A stretch of 64,000 nucleotides of DNA from Candidatus Woesearchaeota archaeon. GTDB lineage: Archaea; Nanobdellota; Nanobdellia; Woesearchaeales; GW2011-AR9. This document shows, piece after piece, positions 2,220 to 63,447 of the stretch. The notes under the pieces are model-generated. The model did no database searches. It saw only the letters and a program-made list of their open reading frames with translations, and had not been told where the DNA came from. The DNA is taken from contig JAGVYE010000001.1 of assembly GCA_018303445.1 (NCBI GenBank), forward strand, positions 2,571 to 66,570, read 5' to 3'. The first letter of the stretch is position 1. Every line of letters starts with the position of its first letter. The translations under genes were made by a program, and so were the position numbers.

Positions 2220-3989
2220 TTATTGGTGTAAGTACCAAAGAGATATTTTATTTTTTTCTTTTTTATCAACACGAGCGAAAAACATCCGCTCTAACTGAAT
2301 AATGTCTCCTTCATTAAGGCTTTGCATGTTTTTTTCTCCTTTTCCTTGTAAAGTGGTTCCGTCAGGCATAAGAATCTCTCCGTCTATTGTTTCGTTAACG
2401 GGAAGCCAATGGATAATTTTGCCTTTATTCTCTGCGTTTTTGTATTCCTTGTAATCAGCAGAGGCAAAAGAGAATCCGACCTTATCAACTTTAAAATTAC
2501 AACAATCCATGAGGCGATGAATTCTTTTTGCCGCAAGATCTAACGAATCTTCTGTTGAAATGAAAAATTTCCCATTAACATGAAGCAAACGTTTTCCTTG
2601 TTCTGGAAAATCGGGGTGAAGATTAATAAAAACTTCTTTTTTCACTAAGCTTTTTATCATTATTTCTTTGGGCTTATCAATAAAAAAATAACGATATGCT
2701 TTTGGTTCAATAAGTTCTCGGTTAAAAGAGTTGATACTTTTCCAAAATTCTTCCATGGTAACGGTTTTGTCGTTAAGACTTAAGCCCATTTCTAAAGCAA
2801 AGCGATGAAATGCTATAGCTTGGTAACCTCTTCTTCGTAAGGCTGGAAGAAAAGGTAGTCTTATGTCTTCCCAATCCTGATACTGCTTTCGTTCGATAGC
2901 AATCTTTGTTTTTGAGGTACTCAATTCAAATCCGTCAAAGTTAATCCTGCCCCAGTGCTTGTACTCTGGGCTTTTCCATCCCAAATATTCCATGATCATT
3001 TTTTCTTTTATTGCATTATCTGCGTGATCCTTACCATTCAGTACATGTGTTACACCTAATTCATGGTCGTCTATTGCTACCGAATAAACCATTAACGGCC
3101 AGACGCGTTGCTCTTTTCCCATCTTGGGATGAACGTGTTCAACAATTCTCAGGATCCCAAAATCCCGCATCGCTGGATTTTTATCTTTGATATTCGTCTT
3201 TAATCGCAAGATAGCTTCCCCTTCAGCATAATTGTTAAACATTTTTGCATAGCGTAGCAGCTGTTCTTTCTGCGTAAGAGAACGGCAGGAACAAGGCGTT
3301 CCTTTATTTTTCATATCTCGCCATTCATCAGCATTGCATGTGCAAACATATGCTTTTCCTACGGCAACTAACTTTTCTGCATAATCATAATATATTCCTA
3401 AACGGGATGATTGCACTATAACCTGAGCTACACCATTGCCTGTCAACCATTGCGCATCTCGTTCAATAAGTTCATATGCTGGTGGATAAATATTCTCCGG
3501 ATTGGTATCTTCAATTCGTAACAATAATTTACCCCCATACATTTTAGCATATTCATGATTTAACGCTACACCATAGGCATGGCCAATGTGGAGCGGCCCG
3601 CTCGGTGAGGGAGCAATACGAACAACAACTTTTCCTATAGTGGCATTTGGTAGGGGCTTAAGCGGGCCTGGCAGAACTTCTTCTTTTTGTTGCAGAAGTT
3701 CTGGAGCAATGGTGAGAAGTTTCTTCTGTATTTGTTCTACTGTTAAAGCTTCAACTTTCTTGACAACGTTTTCAATTTCTTTGATTAAAAAAGGGACCTC
3801 TTTTTTGAACTCCGGACGTTCTCGTAAAGTTTGTCCAAGAACGACATTTTTATTTACTTTTCCTGAAAAATCGGCGGCATTTTTGAGAGCAAATTTAAGA
3901 ATCGTTTTTTGCATGGCAGAAGTATCTTCTTTTCTAGCGATGCGGTTTTTTGTCGTATTATTCTCTTTCTTCCTTGAAGATTTCATCAA
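2220..3989 (-). CDS. gltX: Glutamyl-tRNA synthetase, archaeal/eukaryotic (GlxRS) type
   Basis: Class I HIGH motif 'PSGPLHIGHAYG', 589 aa, long N-terminal basic extension. Confidence 0.8.
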   Translation of the reverse strand: MMKSSRKKENNTTKNRIARKEDTSAMQKTILKFALKNAADFSGKVNKNVVLGQTLRERPEFKKEVPFLIKEIENVVKKVEALTVEQIQKKLLTIAPELLQQKEEVLPGPLKPLPNATIGKVVVRIAPSPSGPLHIGHAYGVALNHEYAKMYGGKLLLRIEDTNPENIYPPAYELIERDAQWLTGNGVAQVIVQSSRLGIYYDYAEKLVAVGKAYVCTCNADEWRDMKNKGTPCSCRSLTQKEQLLRYAKMFNNYAEGEAILRLKTNIKDKNPAMRDFGILRIVEHVHPKMGKEQRVWPLMVYSVAIDDHELGVTHVLNGKDHADNAIKEKMIMEYLGWKSPEYKHWGRINFDGFELSTSKTKIAIERKQYQDWEDIRLPFLPALRRRGYQAIAFHRFALEMGLSLNDKTVTMEEFWKSINSFNRELIEPKAYRYFFIDKPKEIMIKSLVKKEVFINLHPDFPEQGKRLLHVNGKFFISTEDSLDLAAKRIHRLMDCCNFKVDKVGFSFASADYKEYKNAENKGKIIHWLPVNETIDGEILMPDGTTLQGKGEKNMQSLNEGDIIQLERMFFARVDKKEKNKISLWYLHQ

Positions 3990-4024
3990 GAATTAGAAAT
4001 AAGTAATGATTATTAAATGTTTTT

Positions 4025-4084
4025 GTTTTTGTAGAGCTTGTCGTAGGGAAATAGTTTCGGGATAACACCTGTTTTTGTAGAGCT
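4025..4084. repeat. Perfect 14-nt direct repeat 'gtttttgtagagct' (4025-4038 and 4071-4084) in the gltX upstream region
   Basis: Read directly in the sequence. Two copies 46 bp apart. Confidence 0.6.
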
Positions 4085-4090
4085 AGAATA

Positions 4091-4900
4091 TTAAAACTTT
4101 CCTTTTTCAACCAATTTTTTCATTTTCTTGATGAAATCATCCGCTTCCTGGTATAATTTTTCATACTCGGGGCCTTTTACTTCTTGGATATCACGGTGAG
4201 TAATTTCTTTACTTATTTTGTAGAACTTGCGCATTGTTTCTATGTATTTTTTCTCGAGAAGGTTATGGCGGACATAAATTTTTTCTAATAGATCAGCGAT
4301 ATGGTCAGGGGTAGGCGGAACTTGGTCAGCGCGCATCAGGGCGGCATGGGCAGAGTCAATTACGGCCCAGTAGAGGTCAAGAGTGGCCTGCAGTACGTGC
4401 CATCGGGAATTGGCGAGGGTTTTAGGAGCTCGGCCATAATACCGCCAAATGCTCTCTTCAGAAGGGCGAATACGGCCTTGTTTAAGTAGAAGTTGTAATG
4501 GAGTGAAAAAGCCAGTATCATATAGGGCAATTCCATCCCGCAACATATTTACCAAAATGGGATCTCCTGCTTTAGCATGTTCCCAAAAGGAGCTGTAGGT
4601 CATGGAAGTGATGTGCAGTTTAAGGGAAGTACGGCAGACAAGGTTCTCAATAATAAGACGATATCCTTCAATAACTGCTTCCGTGATAAGCATGCCTACA
4701 TCGTCAATAACAACCAGAATGTCAATGTCACTTTTGTCTGTTGTTTCCCTACGTACAGAACTGCCAAAAGCGACAACGCCTACTAAAAAATCTTGCAGTT
4801 CTTTCTTGAGCTGATCAGTGAACTTTCTGGCGATGGCTAAGTCTTCCGTAGGATACTTGTGAAGGTTTTCATTCTCTTTTCTCTGGATGCGAAACTCCAT
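4091..4900 (-). CDS. Nucleotidyltransferase (Pol-beta superfamily) domain protein with C-terminal helical HEPN-like domain
   Basis: 'VVAFGSSVRRETTDKSDIDILVVIDD' is the minimal-nucleotidyltransferase GS...DxD motif. C-terminal ~150 aa are all-helical. Confidence 0.5.
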   Translation of the reverse strand: MEFRIQRKENENLHKYPTEDLAIARKFTDQLKKELQDFLVGVVAFGSSVRRETTDKSDIDILVVIDDVGMLITEAVIEGYRLIIENLVCRTSLKLHITSMTYSSFWEHAKAGDPILVNMLRDGIALYDTGFFTPLQLLLKQGRIRPSEESIWRYYGRAPKTLANSRWHVLQATLDLYWAVIDSAHAALMRADQVPPTPDHIADLLEKIYVRHNLLEKKYIETMRKFYKISKEITHRDIQEVKGPEYEKLYQEADDFIKKMKKLVEKGKF

Positions 4901-5199: not shown

Positions 5200-6348
5200 A
5201 TGGAACAGAAGCAACTTGATGAAATTGATGAGTCTTATTTTGGTGAAGAGTTTATTGATGAAGCAGCAGAAGAAGTCATGAAAGAAGGAGAAGGAAGCGA
5301 GAAGAAAGGGAACTCTTCATCAAAATTAAAAGGGTCTTCTCTCAAAAAGATGAAGAAAAGCAGCGTCAAAAGTTCTGTTCCAAAAGAAAAAGAAGCGGAT
5401 GATGATCATTCCAGTGAGGTGAAAATTATTTCTCTAAAAGAGGAAAATGATATAAAAGACAGTCCAACTAAAAAGGAGGAAGCGGTGTTGAAAGCATCTA
5501 AAGAAGCTGCGGAAAAATCCTCTCCTCCCGTTGATCCTTGGGCGAAAGAAGAACAAGAGGGATCCTTCTTTAAAGAAGCCTCGACATGGAAAGCCGTTAC
5601 CGGGATTGTTATAATCCTCCTTATTTTTTCCGTTTTCACGGAAGGCTTTAAGTTTTCGGGAGGAAGTTTTGCTGCTCAAGAACTAATTTTGCCCCTTTCC
5701 GATGCCGAGAAAAAGGCATTAGAGTATGTGAATACCAATTTAGTTCAGGCCCCATTTTTGGCTTCTGTTTCTGCAACGAAGGATGTGGGGAAGTTTTATA
5801 AAATAACTTTTGCCGTTGCTGGTCAAACTGTTGACTCTTACTTAACAAAAGATGGAAAAATGTTCTTTCCTGTCGGATATAATACTTCCAAGTCATTATC
5901 GCAACAAATAGGGGGTGAAGAACTTAATGTAAACCCGGGAGGGGTGAATACAGCAACAGAGGGTTCTCCAATTGTCTCTGGCGAAGAAGTCCAAAAAGAA
6001 GTTGTAGGAGAAGAAACTATTTCTGCTGATAATGAAACGAAAGTTGTTCTTGAAGAAGAAACGGAAGTTCCAGTTGCAAAAGGAGATAGTCGGGAATTTT
6101 CCCTGACGGCAAAACGCTGGTTATTTTCACCTACTAGTTTTACTGTCAATAAAGGCGATAATGTTGTCCTTACCATTAATCCACAAAATCTTGATTTTAC
6201 ATTCGGTATTCCTGAATTAGGCGTTGAGGAAGAAGTAAAAGGGCCTACTACGGTGGAATTTACAGCTTCAAAGGAAGGCACGTTCATGTTTTCCTGCCGT
6301 AGTTGTGAAGCGTGGAGAGGAATGCAGGGAGAGATTATTGTTAAATAG
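5200..6348 (+). CDS. Membrane-anchored protein with acidic/Lys-rich N-terminus, one TM helix and a C-terminal cupredoxin-like (COX2/NosZ-like) domain with degenerate copper-site motif
   Basis: C-terminal 'LTINPQNLDFTFGIPELGVEEEVKGPTTVEFTASKEGTFMFSCRSCEAWRGMQGEIIV' follows the cupredoxin pattern 'HSF.IP.LG ... G.Y...CSELCG..H..M', but the His ligands are absent and the Cys spacing is altered. Confidence 0.45.
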   Translation: MEQKQLDEIDESYFGEEFIDEAAEEVMKEGEGSEKKGNSSSKLKGSSLKKMKKSSVKSSVPKEKEADDDHSSEVKIISLKEENDIKDSPTKKEEAVLKASKEAAEKSSPPVDPWAKEEQEGSFFKEASTWKAVTGIVIILLIFSVFTEGFKFSGGSFAAQELILPLSDAEKKALEYVNTNLVQAPFLASVSATKDVGKFYKITFAVAGQTVDSYLTKDGKMFFPVGYNTSKSLSQQIGGEELNVNPGGVNTATEGSPIVSGEEVQKEVVGEETISADNETKVVLEEETEVPVAKGDSREFSLTAKRWLFSPTSFTVNKGDNVVLTINPQNLDFTFGIPELGVEEEVKGPTTVEFTASKEGTFMFSCRSCEAWRGMQGEIIVK

Positions 6349-12283: not shown

Positions 12284-13471
12284 ATGAACGCAACGCAAAA
12301 GAATAATACTCTGAAAACTTTGGCAAAATTGCTTATCAAAAATAAACAAAGTATTATTGACAGCAACCAACAAGATCTTTCTGCCTGCCGGAATATTGAG
12401 GAATCAATGCTTGATAGATTGAAAGTTGATGAGAATAAAATCTTAGGAATGATTTCTGCTCTTAATTTTGCGATAAAATCTGATGATCCTGAAGGAAAAA
12501 TATTGTATTCTTATGTTCACCGGAATGGTCTAAAAATTGAAAATAAAACTGTTCCATTCGGCAAGATCATGATTATTTATGAATCAAGGCCAGATGTAAC
12601 AATCGAGGCAGCCATAACTGCTTTCAAGGCCGGGAATAAGATTTTATTAAAGGGAGGCAAAGAAGCCAGAAAGACTAATATGCTTTTGGCAAAACTCTGG
12701 CAAGAGGCACTATCTCTAAATGGACTGGATAAGAATTATGTAGTCTACTTAGACCTCACGAGAGAAGAAACGCAAGATTTAATTAAAAGTAATAATCATC
12801 ACCTTAATTTAATTATTCCAAGAGGCGGAGAGGAGCTTATTAACTTCGTTACACGCAATACAAATATCCCCGTGATAGTAAGTGGAAGAGGGAATAATTT
12901 TCTGTATGTGGATAAAGAATCTGACTTTGAGATGGCTATTAAAATTATACTAAATGGAAAACAAAGAGTAAGTGTTTGTAATGCTTTGGATAAAGTCCTT
13001 ATCCATAAAGAGATCCCAAATATCAAATTAAAGATATCAAATCTAGTCAATAAATTAAAAGTGAATAACATTAAAGTGTTGGGAGATAAAGCTATTTGCA
13101 GATTGAACAGGCAAGTACGGGAAATTGAGGACGAAGCAATATTCTATGAAGAATTTTTATCTTCTAAAATGTTATTAACCATAGTAAAAAATAATCCTGA
13201 AGCTATTAATCTTATTAACAAATATTCCGGTGGACATTCGGCAAGTATAATTACCACCAAAATTCAGACGGCACTAAAATTTCAAAATGAAGTTGATTGT
13301 GCGGTTGTCTACCATAACGCTTCGACGAGATTTACGGACGGCGGCCAATTCGGATTTGGAGCTGAAATAGCAATAAGCACGCAAAAACTTCATTTTAGAG
13401 GTCCAATTGGGATTAATCAGTTAGTTACTAACAAATGGTTCGTTTATGGAGATGGCCAAATAAGAGAATAA
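12284..13471 (+). CDS. proA: Gamma-glutamyl phosphate reductase (glutamate-5-semialdehyde dehydrogenase)
   Basis: 395 aa aldehyde-dehydrogenase-like with a 'VCNALD' region. Immediately followed by proB and proC. Confidence 0.7.
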   Translation: MNATQKNNTLKTLAKLLIKNKQSIIDSNQQDLSACRNIEESMLDRLKVDENKILGMISALNFAIKSDDPEGKILYSYVHRNGLKIENKTVPFGKIMIIYESRPDVTIEAAITAFKAGNKILLKGGKEARKTNMLLAKLWQEALSLNGLDKNYVVYLDLTREETQDLIKSNNHHLNLIIPRGGEELINFVTRNTNIPVIVSGRGNNFLYVDKESDFEMAIKIILNGKQRVSVCNALDKVLIHKEIPNIKLKISNLVNKLKVNNIKVLGDKAICRLNRQVREIEDEAIFYEEFLSSKMLLTIVKNNPEAINLINKYSGGHSASIITTKIQTALKFQNEVDCAVVYHNASTRFTDGGQFGFGAEIAISTQKLHFRGPIGINQLVTNKWFVYGDGQIRE

Positions 13472-13495
13472 AATTATACTTTAGGTGAAAAAATT

Positions 13496-14257
13496 ATGAA
13501 AAAGAAATTAATTGTAAAAATAGGCACTTCAACGCTTACGCAAGGTTCAAATAGAATTTCATACGGAAAAATTGAAGATATCGCAAGACAAATAGTCCTG
13601 CTAAAAAAAGATTACAATGTGATTTTAGTTTCTTCTGGCGCTATAGCAACCGCAAAGCAATTTGTGGATATTAATGGATTTCATAAACAGGTAGATTCAA
13701 AACAAGCAATGGCGGCAATTGGACAACCTAAATTAATGAGAATCTATGATGAAATTTTTAGTAGTTTTGGCTTAAAAGTATCTCAATGCTTAATGACCTA
13801 CAGAGATTTTGAAAACGTCGCAGCCAAAGTAAATACTCAGAAAACAATTATAAAATTATTAGAGCATGACTACATTCCTATTATTAATGAAAACGATACA
13901 GTCGCAATTGAAGAAATAGTTTTTGGTGATAATGATAAATTGTCCGCGCTTGTGGCATCAGTTATAAAAGCAGATTTATTAATCCTCGTTTCGGATATTA
14001 ATGGCTTATATGACCAAAATCCTCACCTAAATAAAGAGGCAAAATTCATAAAAGAGGTAACAGATTTAAAACAGGTTGTATCTTTTGCCAAAGAGAAGAA
14101 ATCTGATCTCGGAACTGGGGGGATGACTTCAAAAATTCAGGCCGCGGAAATTTGTAAAGAGAATAATATTGAGATGTGGATTGTTAATGGGGGGAAAAAT
14201 AATTTTTTGATTGATGCCCTTCACAACAAAATACTTTTTACAAAATTTAGGTTTTAA
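13496..14257 (+). CDS. proB: Glutamate 5-kinase (short form, no PUA domain)
   Basis: 'LIVKIGTSTLT' and 'VILVSSGAIA' are amino-acid-kinase family motifs. 253 aa. Confidence 0.75.
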   Translation: MKKKLIVKIGTSTLTQGSNRISYGKIEDIARQIVLLKKDYNVILVSSGAIATAKQFVDINGFHKQVDSKQAMAAIGQPKLMRIYDEIFSSFGLKVSQCLMTYRDFENVAAKVNTQKTIIKLLEHDYIPIINENDTVAIEEIVFGDNDKLSALVASVIKADLLILVSDINGLYDQNPHLNKEAKFIKEVTDLKQVVSFAKEKKSDLGTGGMTSKIQAAEICKENNIEMWIVNGGKNNFLIDALHNKILFTKFRF

Positions 14258-14260
14258 AAT

Positions 14261-15034
14261 ATGAAGCATGGCTTTATAGGATTTGGAAATTTAGGAAAAG
14301 CTATTTACCAAGGCTTAAAAGATAATAAAGGGCATTCTTTTGCTTATGCGTCTAAAAGTAATTTACATACGGGAATTAAATCATTTGGGAATCTATCGCA
14401 ATTAACTTCTTTTGCGGATGTTATTTGGTTATGTATCCAGCCTCAAAATCTTATAGAAGTATTGACGCAGCTTAAGAGCATTAATCTTAAAGATAAAGTG
14501 ATCGTGTCCCCTGTCGCAGGAAAGAGTATTAGCGTTATTGAAAATTATGTAGGTAAAAATGTAACTATAGTAAGAATTATGCCCAATCTCGCAGTCGCCT
14601 ACAAAAAATCAGTAACGGCATATTGTACAAACAATAAACAAGCTAAACTTTTTAAGTCCGTAAAAAAAAATTTGATGACCTTAGGTAAAGTAGTGGAATT
14701 ACCAGAAAGACATTTTGATTTATTTACTGCGATCTTTGGGAGCGGGCCAGCATTTTTATTAACGATACTACAAGCGCTAAAAAATAAAATAAGCGAATTG
14801 GGAATATCAGACCGTGAGGCCAATGATTTACTAATAGAATTAATAATTGGCACTATCACTTATTTCAAAGAAAATTGCACTCAAAAAAGCATTGATAATT
14901 TAATAAAAGACATTACCAGCAAAGGAGGCACAACAGAAGCGGGATTGAACTATCTTAGGAAGAACAATTTAGATCAATTATTTGAAAAAGTGATCCTTGA
15001 GGCCCAAAAAAAATCTAAAGAGATTGATAAGTGA
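14261..15034 (+). CDS. proC: Pyrroline-5-carboxylate reductase
   Basis: 'FIGFGNLGKAI' NADP-binding Rossmann motif. 257 aa. Third gene of the pro operon. Confidence 0.7.
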   Translation: MKHGFIGFGNLGKAIYQGLKDNKGHSFAYASKSNLHTGIKSFGNLSQLTSFADVIWLCIQPQNLIEVLTQLKSINLKDKVIVSPVAGKSISVIENYVGKNVTIVRIMPNLAVAYKKSVTAYCTNNKQAKLFKSVKKNLMTLGKVVELPERHFDLFTAIFGSGPAFLLTILQALKNKISELGISDREANDLLIELIIGTITYFKENCTQKSIDNLIKDITSKGGTTEAGLNYLRKNNLDQLFEKVILEAQKKSKEIDK

Positions 15035-22501: not shown

Positions 22502-23397
22502 TTTTTTTCCAAGGCATGTCCGCCAAATTCGTTTCGTACGGCCGCAATAACGCTCTTTCCTAACGAAAACTTTCCACTTTTATCTTCTCGAATCATCGTT
22601 GCGACATCGAAAGCCGGAGCGTACCCTTTCACGGCTTCTTTGGTTTTGCGCAGTTCTCCGATGGTTACGCTGCCGATAGTGGTACCAATATTTTTAAAAT
22701 CTTCACGGCGCAAGGCTTTTGTCGTTAATTCTAAAAGCCAACTTCTGATAACAGAGGCCGGTTCCCATAAGGCTGTGGCTTTATCCAACGAAATCGGATG
22801 CTTAAATTTGCTGAGCAGTTCAACACCTTCCGCCAAACCCTGAAGATACACATATTCAATAATATTATGCACACTTTTTACAAAATGGCCGGAGCCAGCA
22901 GGACCAAAGTATCCATACCCTCCTTTTGGGGCGAGAGATTTACAAAAAGGTTCTATGGCCGAGAATTCTTCTTTCGGACCGCCAATCATTAAAGTATATC
23001 CGTTTTGCAATCCCCAAATGCCGCCAGAAACGCCGCAGTCGAAGAAATGTACTCCATACTTTTTACACCAAGAGTCATGTTTTTCGGCATTTTCATAAAA
23101 GTCATTTGCGCCATCAATGATAATGTCTCCTTTCTTAAGAAGAGGAAGAAGTTCTTTGATCATTTCATCCGTCGGCTCTCCTGCGGGCAACATCAGCCAG
23201 ACAATTTTTTTCTTATCGAGCTTTGGCAATAATTCTGGGATGCTATAGGCAGGAAGGGCCCCTTTCTTGGCAATTTCATCGACTTTCTCCGGGCTTCTAT
23301 TATACGCCACAACCATATGCTTGTGAAGAAGCAGCCTTTCCGCCATATGGTATCCCATTCTTCCTAAACCAATTAAACCTAGTTTCATAATCGCCAC
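22498..23397 (-). CDS. gnd: 6-phosphogluconate dehydrogenase (decarboxylating), short ~300-aa form
   Basis: 'MKLGLIGLGRMGYHMAERLL' NAD(P) Rossmann. Overlaps pgl and zwf. Confidence 0.75.
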   Translation of the reverse strand: MAIMKLGLIGLGRMGYHMAERLLLHKHMVVAYNRSPEKVDEIAKKGALPAYSIPELLPKLDKKKIVWLMLPAGEPTDEMIKELLPLLKKGDIIIDGANDFYENAEKHDSWCKKYGVHFFDCGVSGGIWGLQNGYTLMIGGPKEEFSAIEPFCKSLAPKGGYGYFGPAGSGHFVKSVHNIIEYVYLQGLAEGVELLSKFKHPISLDKATALWEPASVIRSWLLELTTKALRREDFKNIGTTIGSVTIGELRKTKEAVKGYAPAFDVATMIREDKSGKFSLGKSVIAAVRNEFGGHALEKK

Positions 23398-24770
23398 CTC
23401 AAATGATGTTTTTTTTCAAAAAGCGAGAGTTCCTGCGGTCCGGCACTTCCGATATTATATTCATAGATCTGATTTTTTTTCCGAAGAATTTGTTTGATGA
23501 CTTTCCATTGATATTCTATTTCATCGCTACGAACAAAAAGGGACTGGTCTCCTTTAATCACATCTTCAAGCAGTATTTCATAAGCCTCCGGGGAGCGAAG
23601 GTCGCGTATGCATTCATGGCAATAATTCATTTTTGCCGGCATGACGGCATTTGCTTTTCCAGGAACCTTGGCAAACAATTCCAGGGAAAAACCCTCATCT
23701 GGCTGCACGCGAATGGTAAGATAATTTGTATCACTCGGGCAGCTCGCTGAAAGAAGACAGTGCACGGACTTAAATTTAATATCAATCTTTACTTCTTTCT
23801 TATCCAGATTTTTTCCCGTGATAAGGTAAAAAGGGACGTTTTTCCATCGTTTATTGTTGATGCTTAATTTAACAGCGGCAAAAGTTTCTGTAGAAGAGTT
23901 TGAGTCCACATCTTTTTCTTTTTGATAGCCGCTATATTGGCCCAATAGCAGGTCTTTAACTTTTATGACCTTCAATACTTTTGCTTTTTCATCACGGATG
24001 AATTTTCCGGTTAATTTCTGTGGAGCTTCCATAGCCGTAAGGGCTAACATTTGCAGCATATGGTTTTGCACAACATCTTTGAGAGCACCATATTTATCAT
24101 AAAAATTACCCCGGCCTTCTAGCCCGATTTTTTCCCGGAAATGAATTTGAACAGACTGGATGTTTGAGGAATCCCATAACGGCTCTAAAACCCGATTAGT
24201 AAAGCGGAGAATGGCAATATTGCCAACTAATTCTTTTCCTAAGTAGTGATCTATCCGGTACACTTGGTTTTCATTAAAGACGCGCGCAATTCCTCGGTTA
24301 ATTTTCCTTGCTGACGGTAGATCGTGTCCAAAAGGTTTCTCATAGACAAGACGCGACCATTTCTTTCCCTGCTCTTTGGCAATACCTGTCTTTGCGAGAT
24401 TAAGAGTGATAGCATTAAAGTGGTCGGGGAGAGTGGCAAGATAAAACAGCCGATGGCCAGGCAATTGATGTTTTGATTCTAAGTTTCGTAAGATTTTTCC
24501 TAGCTTACGGTAATGCTGACAATCATAAAAGTCAAATTGTTGATAGTACGCATTGTTTTCAAGCCTTTGCCAGATATTTTCCTTGACATCTTTAATAAAT
24601 TCCCGCGCTTCCTTCAGAATTTCCTTCATCTCTAATTCTCGTCGCGCTGCACCAACAAGGGCAAATTTCTCAATTTTGTTCTCTTCGATAAGTTTGTAAA
24701 TGGCGGGAATAATTTTTCTCTTTGCTAAATCTCCGGTTACACCTAAGATTATGAACGTTATTTCGGGCAT
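23385..24770 (-). CDS. zwf: Glucose-6-phosphate 1-dehydrogenase
   Basis: Signature 'RIDHYLGKE'. N-terminal 'LGVTGDLAKRK'. 461 aa. Confidence 0.8.
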   Translation of the reverse strand: MPEITFIILGVTGDLAKRKIIPAIYKLIEENKIEKFALVGAARRELEMKEILKEAREFIKDVKENIWQRLENNAYYQQFDFYDCQHYRKLGKILRNLESKHQLPGHRLFYLATLPDHFNAITLNLAKTGIAKEQGKKWSRLVYEKPFGHDLPSARKINRGIARVFNENQVYRIDHYLGKELVGNIAILRFTNRVLEPLWDSSNIQSVQIHFREKIGLEGRGNFYDKYGALKDVVQNHMLQMLALTAMEAPQKLTGKFIRDEKAKVLKVIKVKDLLLGQYSGYQKEKDVDSNSSTETFAAVKLSINNKRWKNVPFYLITGKNLDKKEVKIDIKFKSVHCLLSASCPSDTNYLTIRVQPDEGFSLELFAKVPGKANAVMPAKMNYCHECIRDLRSPEAYEILLEDVIKGDQSLFVRSDEIEYQWKVIKQILRKKNQIYEYNIGSAGPQELSLFEKKHHLRWRL

Positions 24771-24779
24771 TCTTTTCCT

Positions 24780-25709
24780 TTACTCTACAATCGGTTTTAT
24801 TTCGTTACCAAATATGGCACTGATTTCTTTGCAGTACGAAACGATATTTTTCTTAAACCAGGGAGGTTTACTTTTCTGAATTTGGCCCATAATAAAATAG
24901 CTTACAGCCATAATACTCCCATAATCAGCTTTGGCAGGGAGAGGGAGGTCAAAGCGATCTTTTCCCCATAAAGTATTTTTATCACCAAAACTGATAAATA
25001 ATTCATCGGGACGTTTTACAATTGTCGTAGCATGTTTAACGTATTCTGTAGAAAAAATAGAGTAGGCAAGCTCTCGGCCAAACATTTCCACAAATTTTTT
25101 GTCTAACATCTCTCTCATAAGCTCAAATTGTGGTGGAAGGAGGAGATAAAAAGCACCATAATTTTGAAAATTGGGAAAATTAAGTTTGGCAATGGTTTTT
25201 TCTATAAACTGAAGGATATGATAGGGATTTTCTCGTGTTTTTCCCAAAATCATACCCAGATATGTTGATGTGTTATAAGTATATGGTTCTCTATTTTTGG
25301 GGAAAATGAAAACATTTTGAGAAGGCAGCTCTTTTGCGGCCAGAGCCTTTTGGTTGTTGGTAATAAGGTAGACTGGTTTCTTTCTTTTCTTCGCTTCTTT
25401 TGCCATTAATGGGGCATGTTTTCCTCCTGAGGCGGAAAAAATGAGAACAGCATCAATATTTTTAATCTTCAGAAGTTTTTCTTGGTAAGAATTTTCATTG
25501 GCGTAAACGGCATCATGGTCATTGAAGATAATCTGGCCGATAGCGGCGGCGTTGCCGCTGCCAATGACTAAAGGGCGTTTCCATTTGCTGATGGGAAGAG
25601 AGGGAAGCTTCGTTTTTGAGAACAATTCCAGAGCCGCCAGGACGCAGGTGTCTAAATTAGGAATATTTTGCAGTGTAAACGTTTGCATAATTTGGAGATA
25701 TTTTCCCAT
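24780..25709 (-). CDS. SIS-domain sugar-phosphate isomerase-like protein (possible bifunctional phosphoglucose/phosphomannose isomerase)
   Basis: 'LVIGSGNAAAIGQI' and 'AVLIFSASGGKHAPL' resemble the SIS domain. Size and adjacency to zwf-gnd-pgl fit archaeal PGI/PMI. Confidence 0.4.
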   Translation of the reverse strand: MGKYLQIMQTFTLQNIPNLDTCVLAALELFSKTKLPSLPISKWKRPLVIGSGNAAAIGQIIFNDHDAVYANENSYQEKLLKIKNIDAVLIFSASGGKHAPLMAKEAKKRKKPVYLITNNQKALAAKELPSQNVFIFPKNREPYTYNTSTYLGMILGKTRENPYHILQFIEKTIAKLNFPNFQNYGAFYLLLPPQFELMREMLDKKFVEMFGRELAYSIFSTEYVKHATTIVKRPDELFISFGDKNTLWGKDRFDLPLPAKADYGSIMAVSYFIMGQIQKSKPPWFKKNIVSYCKEISAIFGNEIKPIVE

Positions 25710-50172: not shown

Positions 50173-51120
50173 CAAAACCAGGCTTGTCCAGAAAGGAATA
50201 AAAGTGTATACTGAATGTCATTGGTTATGACACAAACAACAATTCAGTATACACTAAAACATGAATTTCTTTCTGAAATTCTTAAACTTTATCATGGAAT
50301 GGATCTACCTTTATATGATAACCATTTTGGACCAAGGATTTACTCAGAGTTTCAAAAGCTTTCATTGGTCGTCTTGTTCAGACGATCCAAGAAAGTTCTG
50401 CGTGATTTTATCGCAGAACTGTTTGAGTCAAAGTGACTTTCTTGGCTTGATTTTAAGCAAATTCCCAGCAAAAGCGTGCTTCATGATTGGTGTACAAAGT
50501 ACACCGTTGAGTTCATTCGTAAACTCAACAGAACTCTTTTGCAAAATAAGAAGCCAAAACTCATGGCAGTTGATGCAACAGGAGTAGATGCATATCAACG
50601 AAGCAAACATTATGAAAAGCGAGCAAAGATAGAAGCGAAATTCAACAAGTTAAGTCTTTTTATTGACGTAGAAAACCATTTGATTTACGATCATGTCTTG
50701 CAGATGAAGCCACGACATGACGTCAAAGCAGCAGAAAGTATCTTTAAAAGAACATCTCTACGAGAGGTGAAGATACTCGGTGATAAAGGTTATGATAGTG
50801 AGCCATTACATGAAATAGTACAAAGTAAACAAAACATCTTGTTTACTCCCGTGAGAAAAAGCTCGCGGAGTAAACCTAAAGGTAAGAATAGAAGAAGATG
50901 CACGAAGGGAGATGGGCAATATAATCTGAGACCAAATGTTGAAAGCTGTATTCACAGCTTAAAGAAACGAAGGATACCTATTTTGCGAAGCAGATTACAC
51001 TTTATGAAAAAGAGAGAAATGGCGGTCCATATATTGATTCATAATATGGAGAAATTAAGTAAAGCTGTCCGGTTTTACATCAGAATGATGCTCAGCATCA
51101 TTCTGGACAAGCCTGTTTCC
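50173..51120 (+). mobile_element. Insertion sequence (~0.95 kb) with 15-bp perfect terminal inverted repeats CAGGCTTGTCCAGAA (50179-50193 / 51101-51115) and an internal left-end hairpin (gtgtatactgaat...attcagtatacac)
   Basis: The inverted repeats were read directly. The DDE transposase ORF lies between them. Confidence 0.55.
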
Positions 51121-52514: not shown

Positions 52515-53284
52515 TGGAATATTTTTTTCTCGATACTGTTGAATAGAAAAGTTATTCCCGAACCAGTGATTCCTAAGAGTATGATCACTGCGTACATTGT
52601 ATCTGTTTCAAATTGAAGTTGGCTGTTTACTAACATCTGGCCAAGGCCATAATTCGTACCGAGGAGCATTTCTGTTACAATCACTACGATGAGTGTAACG
52701 GAGATAGCAATTCTCAATCCAGTGAAAATATAAGGGCATGCTTCTGGCAGCAGCACTTTGAAAAGCAGGGTCGATTTCTTTAATTTGTACAAATGATAAA
52801 AGTGTTTTCGCATCTTACTCGAGTTTATCAAACCATACTTTGTATTAATCAGAATAATCACGCCACTTGCGGTTATCGCGACGGCAATTCTAGAAAAGTC
52901 AGAAACGCCTAAAAAAAGGATAAATAACGGAAATAATACTATCCCTGGAATTGATCGAAAAAAATCAATGCTTTTCTCTGTAAATCTATCCAAAGTCGTA
53001 TAAAAACCGAAGATTAAACCAAAGCTTACTCCTAAAAGTGTAGCAAGGATAAAAGACACGAGTACGCGGAGAGTGGTGGCTAAGAAATTATAAAAGAATT
53101 CTTCCTCAGCAAAAAAAAGCAAGAATTTAACAAAAACTGCGTGAGGCGAAGGCAGAATTAAACTATGCACTACCTGGAATAAGTACAGGAGTTCCCAAAG
53201 CACTAAAAATCCCAAAAACACGAAATAATTTTCCAAAAAACGTTTAATGTAAACATTCATTGAGAACCTCCTTTCGCAGTTCAC
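52496..53284 (-). CDS. ABC transporter permease (NitT/TauT family)
   Basis: 6 TM helices, EAA-like loop region. Confidence 0.65.
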   Translation of the reverse strand: MNCERRFSMNVYIKRFLENYFVFLGFLVLWELLYLFQVVHSLILPSPHAVFVKFLLFFAEEEFFYNFLATTLRVLVSFILATLLGVSFGLIFGFYTTLDRFTEKSIDFFRSIPGIVLFPLFILFLGVSDFSRIAVAITASGVIILINTKYGLINSSKMRKHFYHLYKLKKSTLLFKVLLPEACPYIFTGLRIAISVTLIVVIVTEMLLGTNYGLGQMLVNSQLQFETDTMYAVIILLGITGSGITFLFNSIEKKIFHWREEK

Positions 53285-62139: not shown

Positions 62140-62203
62140 TACTTAGAATTTCTCTTTAATATTAATAAACGTTATGCTCAATTGAGGATTTGTCTAAAAA
62201 CTA

Positions 62204-62221
62204 GAAGAGGGCGGGACTTTA
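62204..62221. repeat. GC-rich inverted-repeat arm GAAGAGGGCGGGACTTTA (partner TAAAGTCCCGCTCTTC at 63266-63281)
   Basis: Read directly. The arms are ~1.05 kb apart and bracket one AT-rich gene. Confidence 0.5.
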
Positions 62222-63199
62222 CTTAACGAAAGAATAATTTATTTTCATTAAGTTATCTCTTGGACTTTTTCGAATTGGTCGGATATACGAAACTTCAGCA
62301 ATTGGATCAATCATCATTATTGTAAATTCTCTTGATTCAGGATTAAAATCATATACAAAGAGATTATCTTCTTTCATATCCCCGATGTTCCAAATTGCTG
62401 TTTTTGCATTTTTTCTAAAATCAGTATATGCTCCAACTAATGCTCATAACATTTCATCATCTGAATCAAAATGTTGTCTTGCATCTCTAACAATTTGGCT
62501 ATGTGGAATTGTGTCATAATTTATTTGAGGATTATTCAATAAATCAGCAGTATTTTCAAAAATTTGTTCAACTGTCGGTTTATCAATTCTTTGCATAAAT
62601 TGGTACTCTTGTGGCTGTTCACCTGAAGCCCCTTCTCTAATTGAAAATCCATAAAAGTTTGGAGTAGCAAAACCATTAGCTCTTAAAGCATTCAATAACC
62701 TAAGTGTCGTTTTCAAATCAACATGTTGGACAATCTTTTTACCTCCGCCAATTATCCCCATCTCTGTTCCAGAAATTAAATCATCATAAGCGTTTGAAAA
62801 TACATCTGATAATTCTTTACCGAGAAACTTTGCAGCATTTGTTACTTTCATTGCAATGCCATCTGCCATAGATAAAGAATAAGAATCACTAAAATTGCCT
62901 GAACCCAGTTTTTCATATCTATCTGGATTTGTTCTCCCATATACAATCTCTTCTAAAACTCCTCTGTCAGATGAAGATAATCTCTTCCTACCTTCTTGAG
63001 TGATAAAGTGATAAAAACCCTCTCTAGAATCATGAACTAAAACACTTCCATCTTCATAGAAGTATGAACCTTTTCCACCTTTGTTTCTTTGTCTAACTAA
63101 GGGAGAACCAACCATATTTTCCACACCTTTTTTTTCACGTAATTGAACTAATGTTGGTGCTTCAGGCAAATTTTTAAGTAATTTAGCTATATCTATCAT
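62219..63199 (-). pseudogene. AT-rich gene of unknown function with in-frame TGA (62444-62446); 251-aa ORF continues for 74 more sense codons after the stop; weak protein-kinase-like motifs
   Basis: '...DSDDEML*ALVGAYTDFRKNAK...YSFVK*' reads in a single frame. 'LGSGNFSDSY...IAMKV' and 'QHVDLK' resemble a kinase Gly loop, VAIK and HRD motifs. Confidence 0.3.
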
Positions 63200-63265
63200 G
63201 AATACCTATAACAACTACTAGTATTTAAATCTTTCGTTTATTAGTCTCTTATAAGTAGTAACTAT

Positions 63266-63283
63266 CATAAAGTCCCGCTCTTC
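63266..63283. repeat. Second arm of GC-rich inverted repeat (TAAAGTCCCGCTCTTCAA)
   Basis: Reverse complement matches 62204-62221 with a 1-2 nt indel. Confidence 0.5.
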
Positions 63284-63447
63284 AATTCTGTTAATAGAAA
63301 GCTCTACGAGCCAGATTACGACAAATCCTCAACTTTGATTTTTTGCCTACGGCATCGTTGCACTAAAAATCAAGTCCTAACGGACGAGCATAACAGGGCC
63401 CGATGTTATGTTAATAATATTTTTGTTAAGGATGGAAGAAAGTAATA

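Follow-up and report, generated by a model that had tools for sequence, protein, structure and literature searches.

A probable integron-like gene cassette with a broken kinase-like gene in a Woesearchaeota archaeon

Background

Integrons were first reported in Archaea in 2022, by model-based detection of attC sites; most are integrase-less arrays in which open reading frames (ORFs) of the same orientation lie among attC hairpins, and the phyla that carry them include Nanoarchaeota (Ghaly et al. 2022, PMC9668308). Two further systems are built from small gene units: the mobile insertion cassettes (MICs), such as MIC231 of Bacillus cereus (PMC3913671, PMC3129680), and the pdif modules of Acinetobacter plasmids (PMC6449649, PMC13141974). 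Here we describe a 1,224-bp unit of Candidatus Woesearchaeota (order Woesearchaeales), located at 62171..63394 on the minus strand of a 64,000-nt stretch of contig JAGVYE010000001.1 (assembly GCA_018303445.1); this whole stretch is called the window below. As delimited by flank comparison and arm profiles, the unit consists of a long arm, a putative promoter, a kinase-like gene and a short arm. We read it, with a probability of roughly 65%, as an integron-like mobile gene cassette that stands alone at this locus and carries a dead kinase-like gene. An earlier note on the window, made from the letters alone, had drawn attention to the region as an AT-rich single-gene cassette with an in-frame TGA, bracketed by a 17-nt inverted repeat.

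Structure of the cassette

Homology to the copies at other loci ends at 62171 and 63394, and between these borders three pairs of modules are nested collinearly. The compact ('short') arm (62171..62221), the most conserved part of the element, contains, in plus-strand reading, module C' (GTTATGCTC, 62171-62179), module B' (TTGAGGATTTGTC, 62182-62194) and module A' (GAAGAGGGCGGGACTTTA, an 18-mer at 62204-62221 that overlaps the TAA stop). The expanded ('long') arm (63268..63394) contains modules A, B and C together with hairpins: the inverted partner TAAAGTCCCGCTCTTC (63268-63283) pairs with GAAGAGGGCGGGACTTTA with a 2-nt gap, module B (63320-63332) forms a perfect 13-nt pair with module B', and the outermost module C (GAGCATAAC, 63386-63394) forms a 9-nt pair with module C'. 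Read in gene orientation, the long arm (63394..63268) consists of C' (GTTATGCTC), 53 nt, B' (TTGAGGATTTGTC), 36 nt with a small hairpin (gctc-tac-gagc, 63301-63311) and A', and the compact arm (62221..62171) consists of A, 9 nt with a run of five T residues on the gene (minus) strand (62196-62200, between modules A and B), B, 2 nt and C. A second hairpin, gtcc-taac-ggac (63374-63385), lies within the 53-nt hairpin-bearing insert of the long arm. The 17-nt repeat of the earlier note is real and is the innermost of these pairs; its partner lies at 63268-63283, not 63266-63283, and the complete repeat is larger, with three modules.

At 62177-62186, the B/C module junction of the compact arm is a perfect 10-bp palindrome, CTCAATTGAG, and in the long arm the 53-nt hairpin insert sits exactly at the centre of this palindrome, like an inserted small palindromic element.

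A motif resembling an archaeal TFB recognition element and TATA box (BRE/TATA; cgaaaga-tttaaata) is found at 63222..63236 on the minus strand, 22 nt 5' of the ATG and about 30 nt past the long arm. Every homologous locus, armless ones included, has this motif equally far from its gene, and by comparison with the known archaeal promoter consensus it is probably the promoter. Since it sits between the long arm and the ATG, the gene's own mRNA would lack the complete pair of arms. Scans with Rfam of the region and three related loci found nothing relevant. No tRNA or tmRNA gene came up in scans of the window and of nine loci, so that there is no tRNA-type att site.

The GC content of the element is 0.333, compared with a window mean of 0.379 (standard deviation 0.025), which places it at the 4.4th percentile. 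The gene is thus AT-rich, as had been stated, to a modest and not unique degree: housekeeping genes of proline biosynthesis at 12-14 kb have a lower GC content still, and no part of the window is richer in AT than they are. Because of these genes, AT-richness is weak evidence of a foreign origin, and the earlier argument from it carries little weight.

Copies of the cassette in other genomes

Searched for elsewhere, the inverted repeat behaves as the end of a repeated element, being found at other loci (numbered below with the prefix L) and also around a different gene. Arms enclose the kinase gene in at least five other contexts, among them L002, L012 and L015, with XerA and RadA as neighbours; L004, beside AlaE, TrmB and a restriction-modification (R-M) system; L005, L006 and L007, from Guaymas, beside an unknown gene and an insertion sequence (IS); and L020, described below. 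In every context the similarity between loci ends at module C. L013 has the same three-module arms in the same layout around an unrelated methyltransferase-like ORF. In L014 a compact arm lies 5' of a helix-turn-helix (HTH)-nucleotidyltransferase gene and abuts a fragment of another long arm, and in L004 a second long arm is found 6.8 kb from the first. With its arms kept in several contexts and its cargo exchanged, the unit is, as the earlier note had supposed, quite probably a mobile or exchangeable single-gene cassette.

L020 is the window's own locus in another strain of the same population. Beyond the long arm, a 186-aa gene and an N6/N4 DNA methyltransferase replace ParA/MinD there (L020 1-2000), so that the end of the cassette is a rearrangement breakpoint. 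L020 matches the window without a difference as far as a breakpoint within the gene, and past this point the identity falls to about 90%; moreover, 13 of the 14 substitutions that separate L019 from the window are the base found in L002. These patterns reveal mosaic recombination between copies. Coding sequences of the copies are 74-92% identical, as against 94-100% for their short arms. In a related species, whose DedA is 79% identical, the synteny TENA-ParA...DedA-PEP-utiliser is kept, and the interval between ParA and DedA contains two unrelated genes, with neither kinase nor arms. This supports the view that the interval is variable; the related species would not represent an empty site.

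The short arm is retained and the long arm decayed in L003. Distant homologues of the kinase gene, with 52-56% identity, have no arms; in two of these armless loci, L008 and L010, candidate gene-spanning repeats amounted to weak, non-nested AT-rich matches and were dismissed. With exact patterns, a 23-mer in the case of the metagenomes, the arm motif was located in one Woesearchaeota metagenome-assembled genome and in five metagenome contigs, of which L013 is one. A match in Parachlamydiaceae from the genome scan (L011) comprised module B alone and was treated as chance, and scans of viral contigs with two arm patterns, together with a plasmid blastn search, gave no matches.

Two neighbours may be mentioned here. 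R-M genes lie near the cassette in L004, and in L002 (2214-3131) and L012 the gene of an archaeal XerA-type tyrosine recombinase adjoins RadA, at a distance of 0.7 kb from the kinase cassette. The L002 XerA is the only recombinase seen near any copy.

Tandem arrays and attC-like junctions

In L013 (1-5998 of Ga0233425_10021114), four or more cassettes follow one another in tandem within 6 kb, all on one strand and in one orientation; they encode HEPN and MNT nucleotidyltransferase, a methyltransferase-like protein, a 278-aa protein and a 286-aa protein. The repeats between its cassettes are about 125 nt long and 94% identical, and its boundaries recur as ..CATAAC(A) and (T)GTTA... At 560-4100 of L005 (Guaymas Basin; also L006 and L007), three cassettes of the same orientation, with the kinase in the middle, are associated with attC-like hairpins at 1600-1813, 3022-3117 and 3945-4094, and a DDE transposase follows the array. 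The third of these cassettes (126-aa ORF) is spanned by a GC-rich inverted repeat of 15 nt without mismatch (3229-3243 / 3921-3935), and further gene-spanning inverted repeats occur in L013 (4906-4921 / 5873-5888) and L004 (1534-1553 / 3053-3072). The inner modules are specific to each cassette yet always inverted across the gene, and only the ..TAAC/GTTA.. ends are common to the cassettes.

When folded as single-stranded DNA (ssDNA), the junctions form hairpins with z-scores of -3.9 in L013, -2.9 and -2.95 in L005 and -5.2 in L004; the values -2.9 and -5.2 are those of kinase cassettes. The TAAC and GTTA boxes are paired at the base of these hairpins, above which come one-sided bulges, an inner stem of 11 bp and a variable tip; on the coding strand the order is ORF, RYYYAAC-like box, GTTRRRY-like box. 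In the window and all arm-bearing loci the core boxes are GCATAAC after the ORF and GTTATGC at the cassette start, each with one mismatch and with AAC or GTT kept; GTTAAGT, GTTAGTT and ACATAAC are the core boxes of other cassettes. Like the kinase cassette, the other cassettes examined have a BRE/TATA-like motif, which lies 22-40 nt 5' of the ATG.

The window has a single cassette, among housekeeping genes. The end of its long arm, together with the adjoining sequence by the 3' end of the ParA/MinD gene, forms a palindromic mini-junction, CATAACA-GGGCCCGA-TGTTATG (63389..63410), a perfect 7-bp inverted repeat with an 8-nt spacer. Compact junctions are found elsewhere too: two in L013, of the form 7-N9/10-7, one in L020 and one in L002.

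These features resemble those of integrons and CALINs (clusters of attC sites lacking integrases; PMC9668308) in several respects. L005, L013 and L004 consist of short single-gene units arranged in tandem and in the same orientation, which are parted by imperfect palindromes of 95-210 nt that form ssDNA hairpins with RYYYAAC-like and GTTRRRY-like boxes; within an array, each junction repeat closely resembles the others, some cassettes are of the toxin-antitoxin kind, and, as in CALINs, the arrays are without integrase. Moreover, Woesearchaeales belong, according to GTDB, to Nanoarchaeota, a phylum with reported archaeal attC sites. The situation is different from that of known integrons in several points. 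Every cassette here has its own putative BRE/TATA promoter, whereas integron cassettes are mostly promoterless; cassette-specific GC-rich inverted repeats (modules A and B here) span the gene just inside the core boxes; several junctions, both of those in the window included, are 'mini' ones with a centre of 0-10 nt; and the core boxes GCATAAC / GTTATGC are one position off the consensus, with no IntI found in the window or the fetched loci.

Proposed mode of movement and alternative explanations

In our reading, module C (..CATAAC / GTTATG..) would supply the core recombination boxes of the cassette, which in relatives are the paired boxes of attC-like hairpins. The cassette would be moved or exchanged as a unit by site-specific recombination at the TAAC/GTTA cores, in the fashion of integrons, by a tyrosine recombinase acting in trans, either an integron integrase encoded elsewhere in the genome or possibly a XerA-type enzyme, and homologous recombination between copies would add mosaicism. 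The unit in the window would be a solitary cassette that has lost its own attC. Because it is solitary and its own attC has been reduced to nothing, it has probably ceased to be mobile. The sequences themselves show the nonsense change, the kinase fold with its residues, the conserved arms and their modules, the changes of context and of cargo, the arrays and the junctions able to form hairpins. How the cassette recombines, by which enzyme, and whatever modules A and B do is our inference, and for recombination of the attC/integron type in particular the odds seem to us slightly below even.

Several observations count against an integron-like cassette. No integron integrase was found among the 57 ORFs of the window or in any fetched locus, and the recombinase of L002 passed the archaeal XerA model NF040815 (232 > 220 bits) and failed the integron-integrase model (217 < 265). 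Own promoters and gene-spanning inverted repeats are untypical of integron cassettes. In place of a complete attC, the window has the 22-nt mini-palindrome at one border of the cassette and, at the other, a core box that abuts GTT (62170/62171); the hairpin form of attC is absent from the L002 junction as well. The attC likeness of the junctions was judged by hairpin folding and by our own scan for attC-like sites (R boxes at least 6/7 complementary and an L stem of at least 8 bp) rather than by an attC covariance model, and this strict scan, which is too rigid for bulged stems, recovered only one junction and so weighs neither for nor against. Neither a circular form nor a clean empty site was observed. 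Finally, the copy number is low, about one per genome, with a handful of loci found by exact-pattern scans.

A distinct archaeal cassette system, in place of ordinary integron cassettes, would also be compatible with the evidence. Such a system would be characterized by a promoter of its own and by a cassette-specific composite repeat that spans the gene and adjoins the TAAC/GTTA cores, with exchange by a host XerA-type enzyme, not IntI, and with functional mini junctions. If this were true, the two arms and cores of a circular form would make one long palindromic site, and the 7-N(0-10)-7 mini junctions, that of the window included, would be functional double-stranded sites, not decayed attC sites. 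A known parallel is found in pdif modules, which are likewise small gene modules that occur in arrays, with inverted recombination sites at their borders and often with toxin-antitoxin or adaptive genes as cargo; they are shuffled in trans by a host Xer-type recombinase, and XerA is encoded 0.7 kb from the cassette in L002 and L012. However, pdif sites are 28-bp sites of the form 11-6-11, shared by neighbouring modules and alternating in orientation, whereas the cassettes here all point one way and have palindromic cores of 7 bp with a centre of 0-10 nt (or about 100-200 nt). Inspection without an archaeal dif consensus as reference turned up a 7-8-7 palindrome and nothing resembling an 11-6-11 dif site. 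We regard a distinct system as possible, at about one chance in four in our judgement.

Chief among the competing explanations is a non-autonomous transposon with terminal inverted repeats, that is, a MIC, in which modules A-C would bind a transposase encoded elsewhere, and arrays and abutting ends would result from insertion beside existing ends. Like MICs, the unit is small, bounded by inverted repeats and without a transposase, and its passengers vary between copies. Each end repeats, inverted and with its own spacing, the three modules of the other, as in many transposons, ends abut in L014 and in the compact junctions, and IS elements occur in these genomes. However, the ends of MICs match a known IS and are accompanied by target duplications, and here neither is the case: no target-site duplication was seen at six independent insertions (window, L002, L004, L005, L013 and L020), and the 18-nt repeats of the window's only IS bear no relation to the cassette ends. 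Pattern scans of viral, genome and metagenome sequences revealed no autonomous element with these ends, and in these scans the arms occurred only around non-transposase genes; the copy number is about one per genome. The inner parts of the ends are moreover specific to each cassette, with only ..TAAC/GTTA.. shared, and the junctions are structured hairpins of attC size. A transposon is thus unlikely.

Still less likely is a role of the inverted repeats in RNA or transcription instead of mobility, either through pairing of the flanks in read-through transcripts or as a symmetric terminator or insulator; the repeats would then be conserved since they regulate the gene. Several features would suit such a role. 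The hairpin gtcc/ggac of the long arm shows compensatory changes, to tccc/ggga and ccc/ggg at other loci, with two pairs altered on both sides in 3-4 of seven sequences. In addition, the extremely conserved short arm has its T run right after module A and is retained in L003 despite the decay of the long arm there, and gene-spanning inverted repeats recur in other cassettes. However, with the promoter between the long arm and the ATG, the mRNA of the gene itself cannot hold both arms; there was no Rfam match; and neither strand of the long arm gives more than a weak consensus fold (-11 kcal/mol), with little covariation beyond that one hairpin. Regulation would also leave unexplained the sharp borders of homology at the outer module, the exchange of cargo and the arrays. 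A group I or II intron, a bulge-helix-bulge stem, IS200/IS605 ends, an IS110 bridge-RNA-like element and an invertible segment were all rejected, as the required proteins or motifs are lacking and the orientation is constant in 13 assemblies.

If the unit is an integron-like cassette, the locus provides a concrete, sequence-defined case of cassette packaging in Woesearchaeota, with an own promoter, gene-spanning repeats and attC-like junctions, and the kinase-like family would travel on cassettes together with toxin-antitoxin and R-M genes. Such cassettes would show integron-like systems adapted to archaeal transcription, and an exchange of accessory genes among streamlined episymbiont genomes. 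The arms offer a simple search handle for further cassettes and, eventually, for the recombinase.

The kinase-like gene

The whole conceptual gene (62219..63199, minus strand) has 326 codons and is broken at codon 252 in the window. Its intact product is predicted, from its residues and fold, to be a divergent minimal protein kinase-like (PKL) enzyme. In an alignment of 20 sequences (A2), E129, N279 and D298 are invariant and G99, G101, K118 and D274 nearly so. The codons for G99-S-G101 of the Gly-rich loop and for Lys118 (VAMK), which anchors ATP, lie at 62846..62905 on the minus strand, a stretch that profile matches to PDB place on Ser/Thr kinases with E ~ 0.01, and those for the catalytic-loop Asp274 and Asn279 (IGDMKEDN) and the metal-binding Asp298 (MIDP) lie at 62306..62380 on the same strand, all of them 3' of the TGA. 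The Gly loop and 'AMKV' pointed out in the earlier note are thus genuine kinase motifs; 'HVDLK', also named there, is not the catalytic loop, the real one being IGDMKEDN, past the TGA. The AlphaFold2 model of the protein (mean predicted local distance difference test score, pLDDT, 87.7) had kinases throughout as best Foldseek matches. With its Gly loop, beta3 Lys, alphaC Glu (E129), catalytic Asp and Asn, metal-binding Asp and bilobal fold, the protein has the features that define PKL enzymes.

No curated family model in Pfam, NCBIfam or PADLOC matches the protein of the window, and only one of its 20 relatives matches Pkinase of Pfam (E 0.001). Among 5.8 billion proteins searched there were nine relatives, 315-326 aa long apart from two fragments of lesser length, and the family has 25 representatives in 1.84 billion proteins. 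The gene represents an unclassified family of minimal kinase-like enzymes that is restricted to DPANN-type archaea. In common with other minimal or atypical kinases (Bud32, RIO1/2, WaaP, NleH/OspG/HopBF1 and APH), it has the full signature from the Gly loop to the metal-binding Asp and a short C-lobe with no activation segment. In contrast to them, it has its own beta-rich N-terminal domain of about 90 aa, its catalytic loop is IGDxxxxN, not HRD or HGD, and its tiny family belongs to no sequence family in the three databases named above.

The in-frame TGA

The minus-strand ORF 63199..62444 encodes 251 aa and ends in a TGA (62444..62446), after which the frame stays open for 74 sense codons, down to a TAA at 62219-62221, as had been noted before. 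At the local base composition, an opening of this length has a chance probability of P ~ 9e-4, and stop-to-stop runs of that length make up 2.2% of all runs in the window. The downstream frame is genuinely coding, as homologues align through it. Since the catalytic Asp and Asn and the metal-binding Asp are encoded past the TGA, the 251-aa product is, as judged from its sequence, dead.

The TGA results from a T (plus-strand A at 62446) in place of the first G of GGA (Gly252), as is evident from sibling assemblies, which were located through an identical DedA protein. In all 13 sibling loci (L001 and L016-L027), from independent assemblies of the same population, codon 252 is GGA; one contig with GGA opposite the TGA, which shares the DedA neighbour of the window, is 99.4% identical to it. 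The ENA contig k141_751743 is colinear with the window, which corresponds to its positions 644-64643. The TGA base is the sole difference between the two over 8,515 nt, and in a further 6,693 nt the sole difference is a synonymous TTC/TTT at window position 53096, in an ABC permease gene. As this is the only other difference in 15.2 kb, the window appears to be a natural, very close variant of k141_751743. The TGA is thus private to this assembly and is very probably either a plain G-to-T nonsense change or an error of the consensus, with no recoding; in itself it is ordinary. Of the two possibilities that the earlier note had left side by side, a gene broken by a nonsense mutation and stop-codon readthrough, only the first agrees with the siblings. 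The basis of comparison is assembled consensus sequence, with which a real rare allele and a base error are both compatible, and this tempers the description of the gene as dead.

It is most improbable that the TGA is decoded and the gene functional, whether by programmed readthrough, by insertion of selenocysteine or by a foreign element's use of code 25 (TGA = Gly) or code 4 (Trp). The genuine coding sequence past the TGA would fit decoding, as would the expected residue, Gly, which is the one that code 25 inserts, and a second mobile gene of the window, an IS transposase, has an in-frame TGA that is fixed in the population. However, the siblings write Gly252 as GGA, and there is a lone TGA among the 326 codons. 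The nine homologues that align through the stop position have Gly there, or Lys/Arg in two of them, and never Cys; the scans for tRNA and Rfam families revealed neither tRNA-Sec nor SECIS (selenocysteine insertion sequence) nor sel genes in the window, in agreement with the earlier judgement that selenocysteine is unlikely. All three stop codons are in use in the host, and since many long housekeeping ORFs of the window with full-length Pfam coverage end in TGA, the host genome is best read as using the standard code. The idea of an ordinary gene of 251 aa, with an open frame behind it and an inverted repeat around it that both arose by chance, has nothing in its favour beyond the ORF call itself and can be dismissed, as homologues of 315-326 aa align across the stop, the catalytic residues lie past it, so long an open frame is rare by chance, and the arms are kept at many loci; both parts of the counter-scenario in the earlier note, a repeat occurring only here and homologues ending at the TGA, are contradicted.

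The IS mentioned above lies at 50176-51118 of the window and has 18-nt terminal inverted repeats. Its transposase (DDE_Tnp_1) has an in-frame TGA at 50434-50436, the frame consisting of ATG, 73 codons, the TGA and 245 codons. All eight sibling assemblies call the same pieces of 73 aa and 184-203 aa, so that this TGA, unlike that of the kinase gene, is fixed in the population; the transposase may be a stable pseudogene or subject to regulated readthrough. That several of the sibling contigs stop at the IS points to a multi-copy element. The variable hairpin tip after the Guaymas kinase cassette (L005 3075-3095), GAGGCTTGTCCGAA, resembles the terminal repeat of this IS, CAGGCTTGTCCAGAA (50176-50193), and may be a fragment of an IS end or a coincidence.

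Two other runs in the stop-to-stop list resemble readthrough candidates. At 12284-15031 of the window, proline genes similar to ProA, ProB and ProC lie in one frame and are parted by single stop codons, and at 23388-25709 the same is true of G6PD and an unknown ORF of 309 aa, parted by a single stop; both runs are merely abutting genes.

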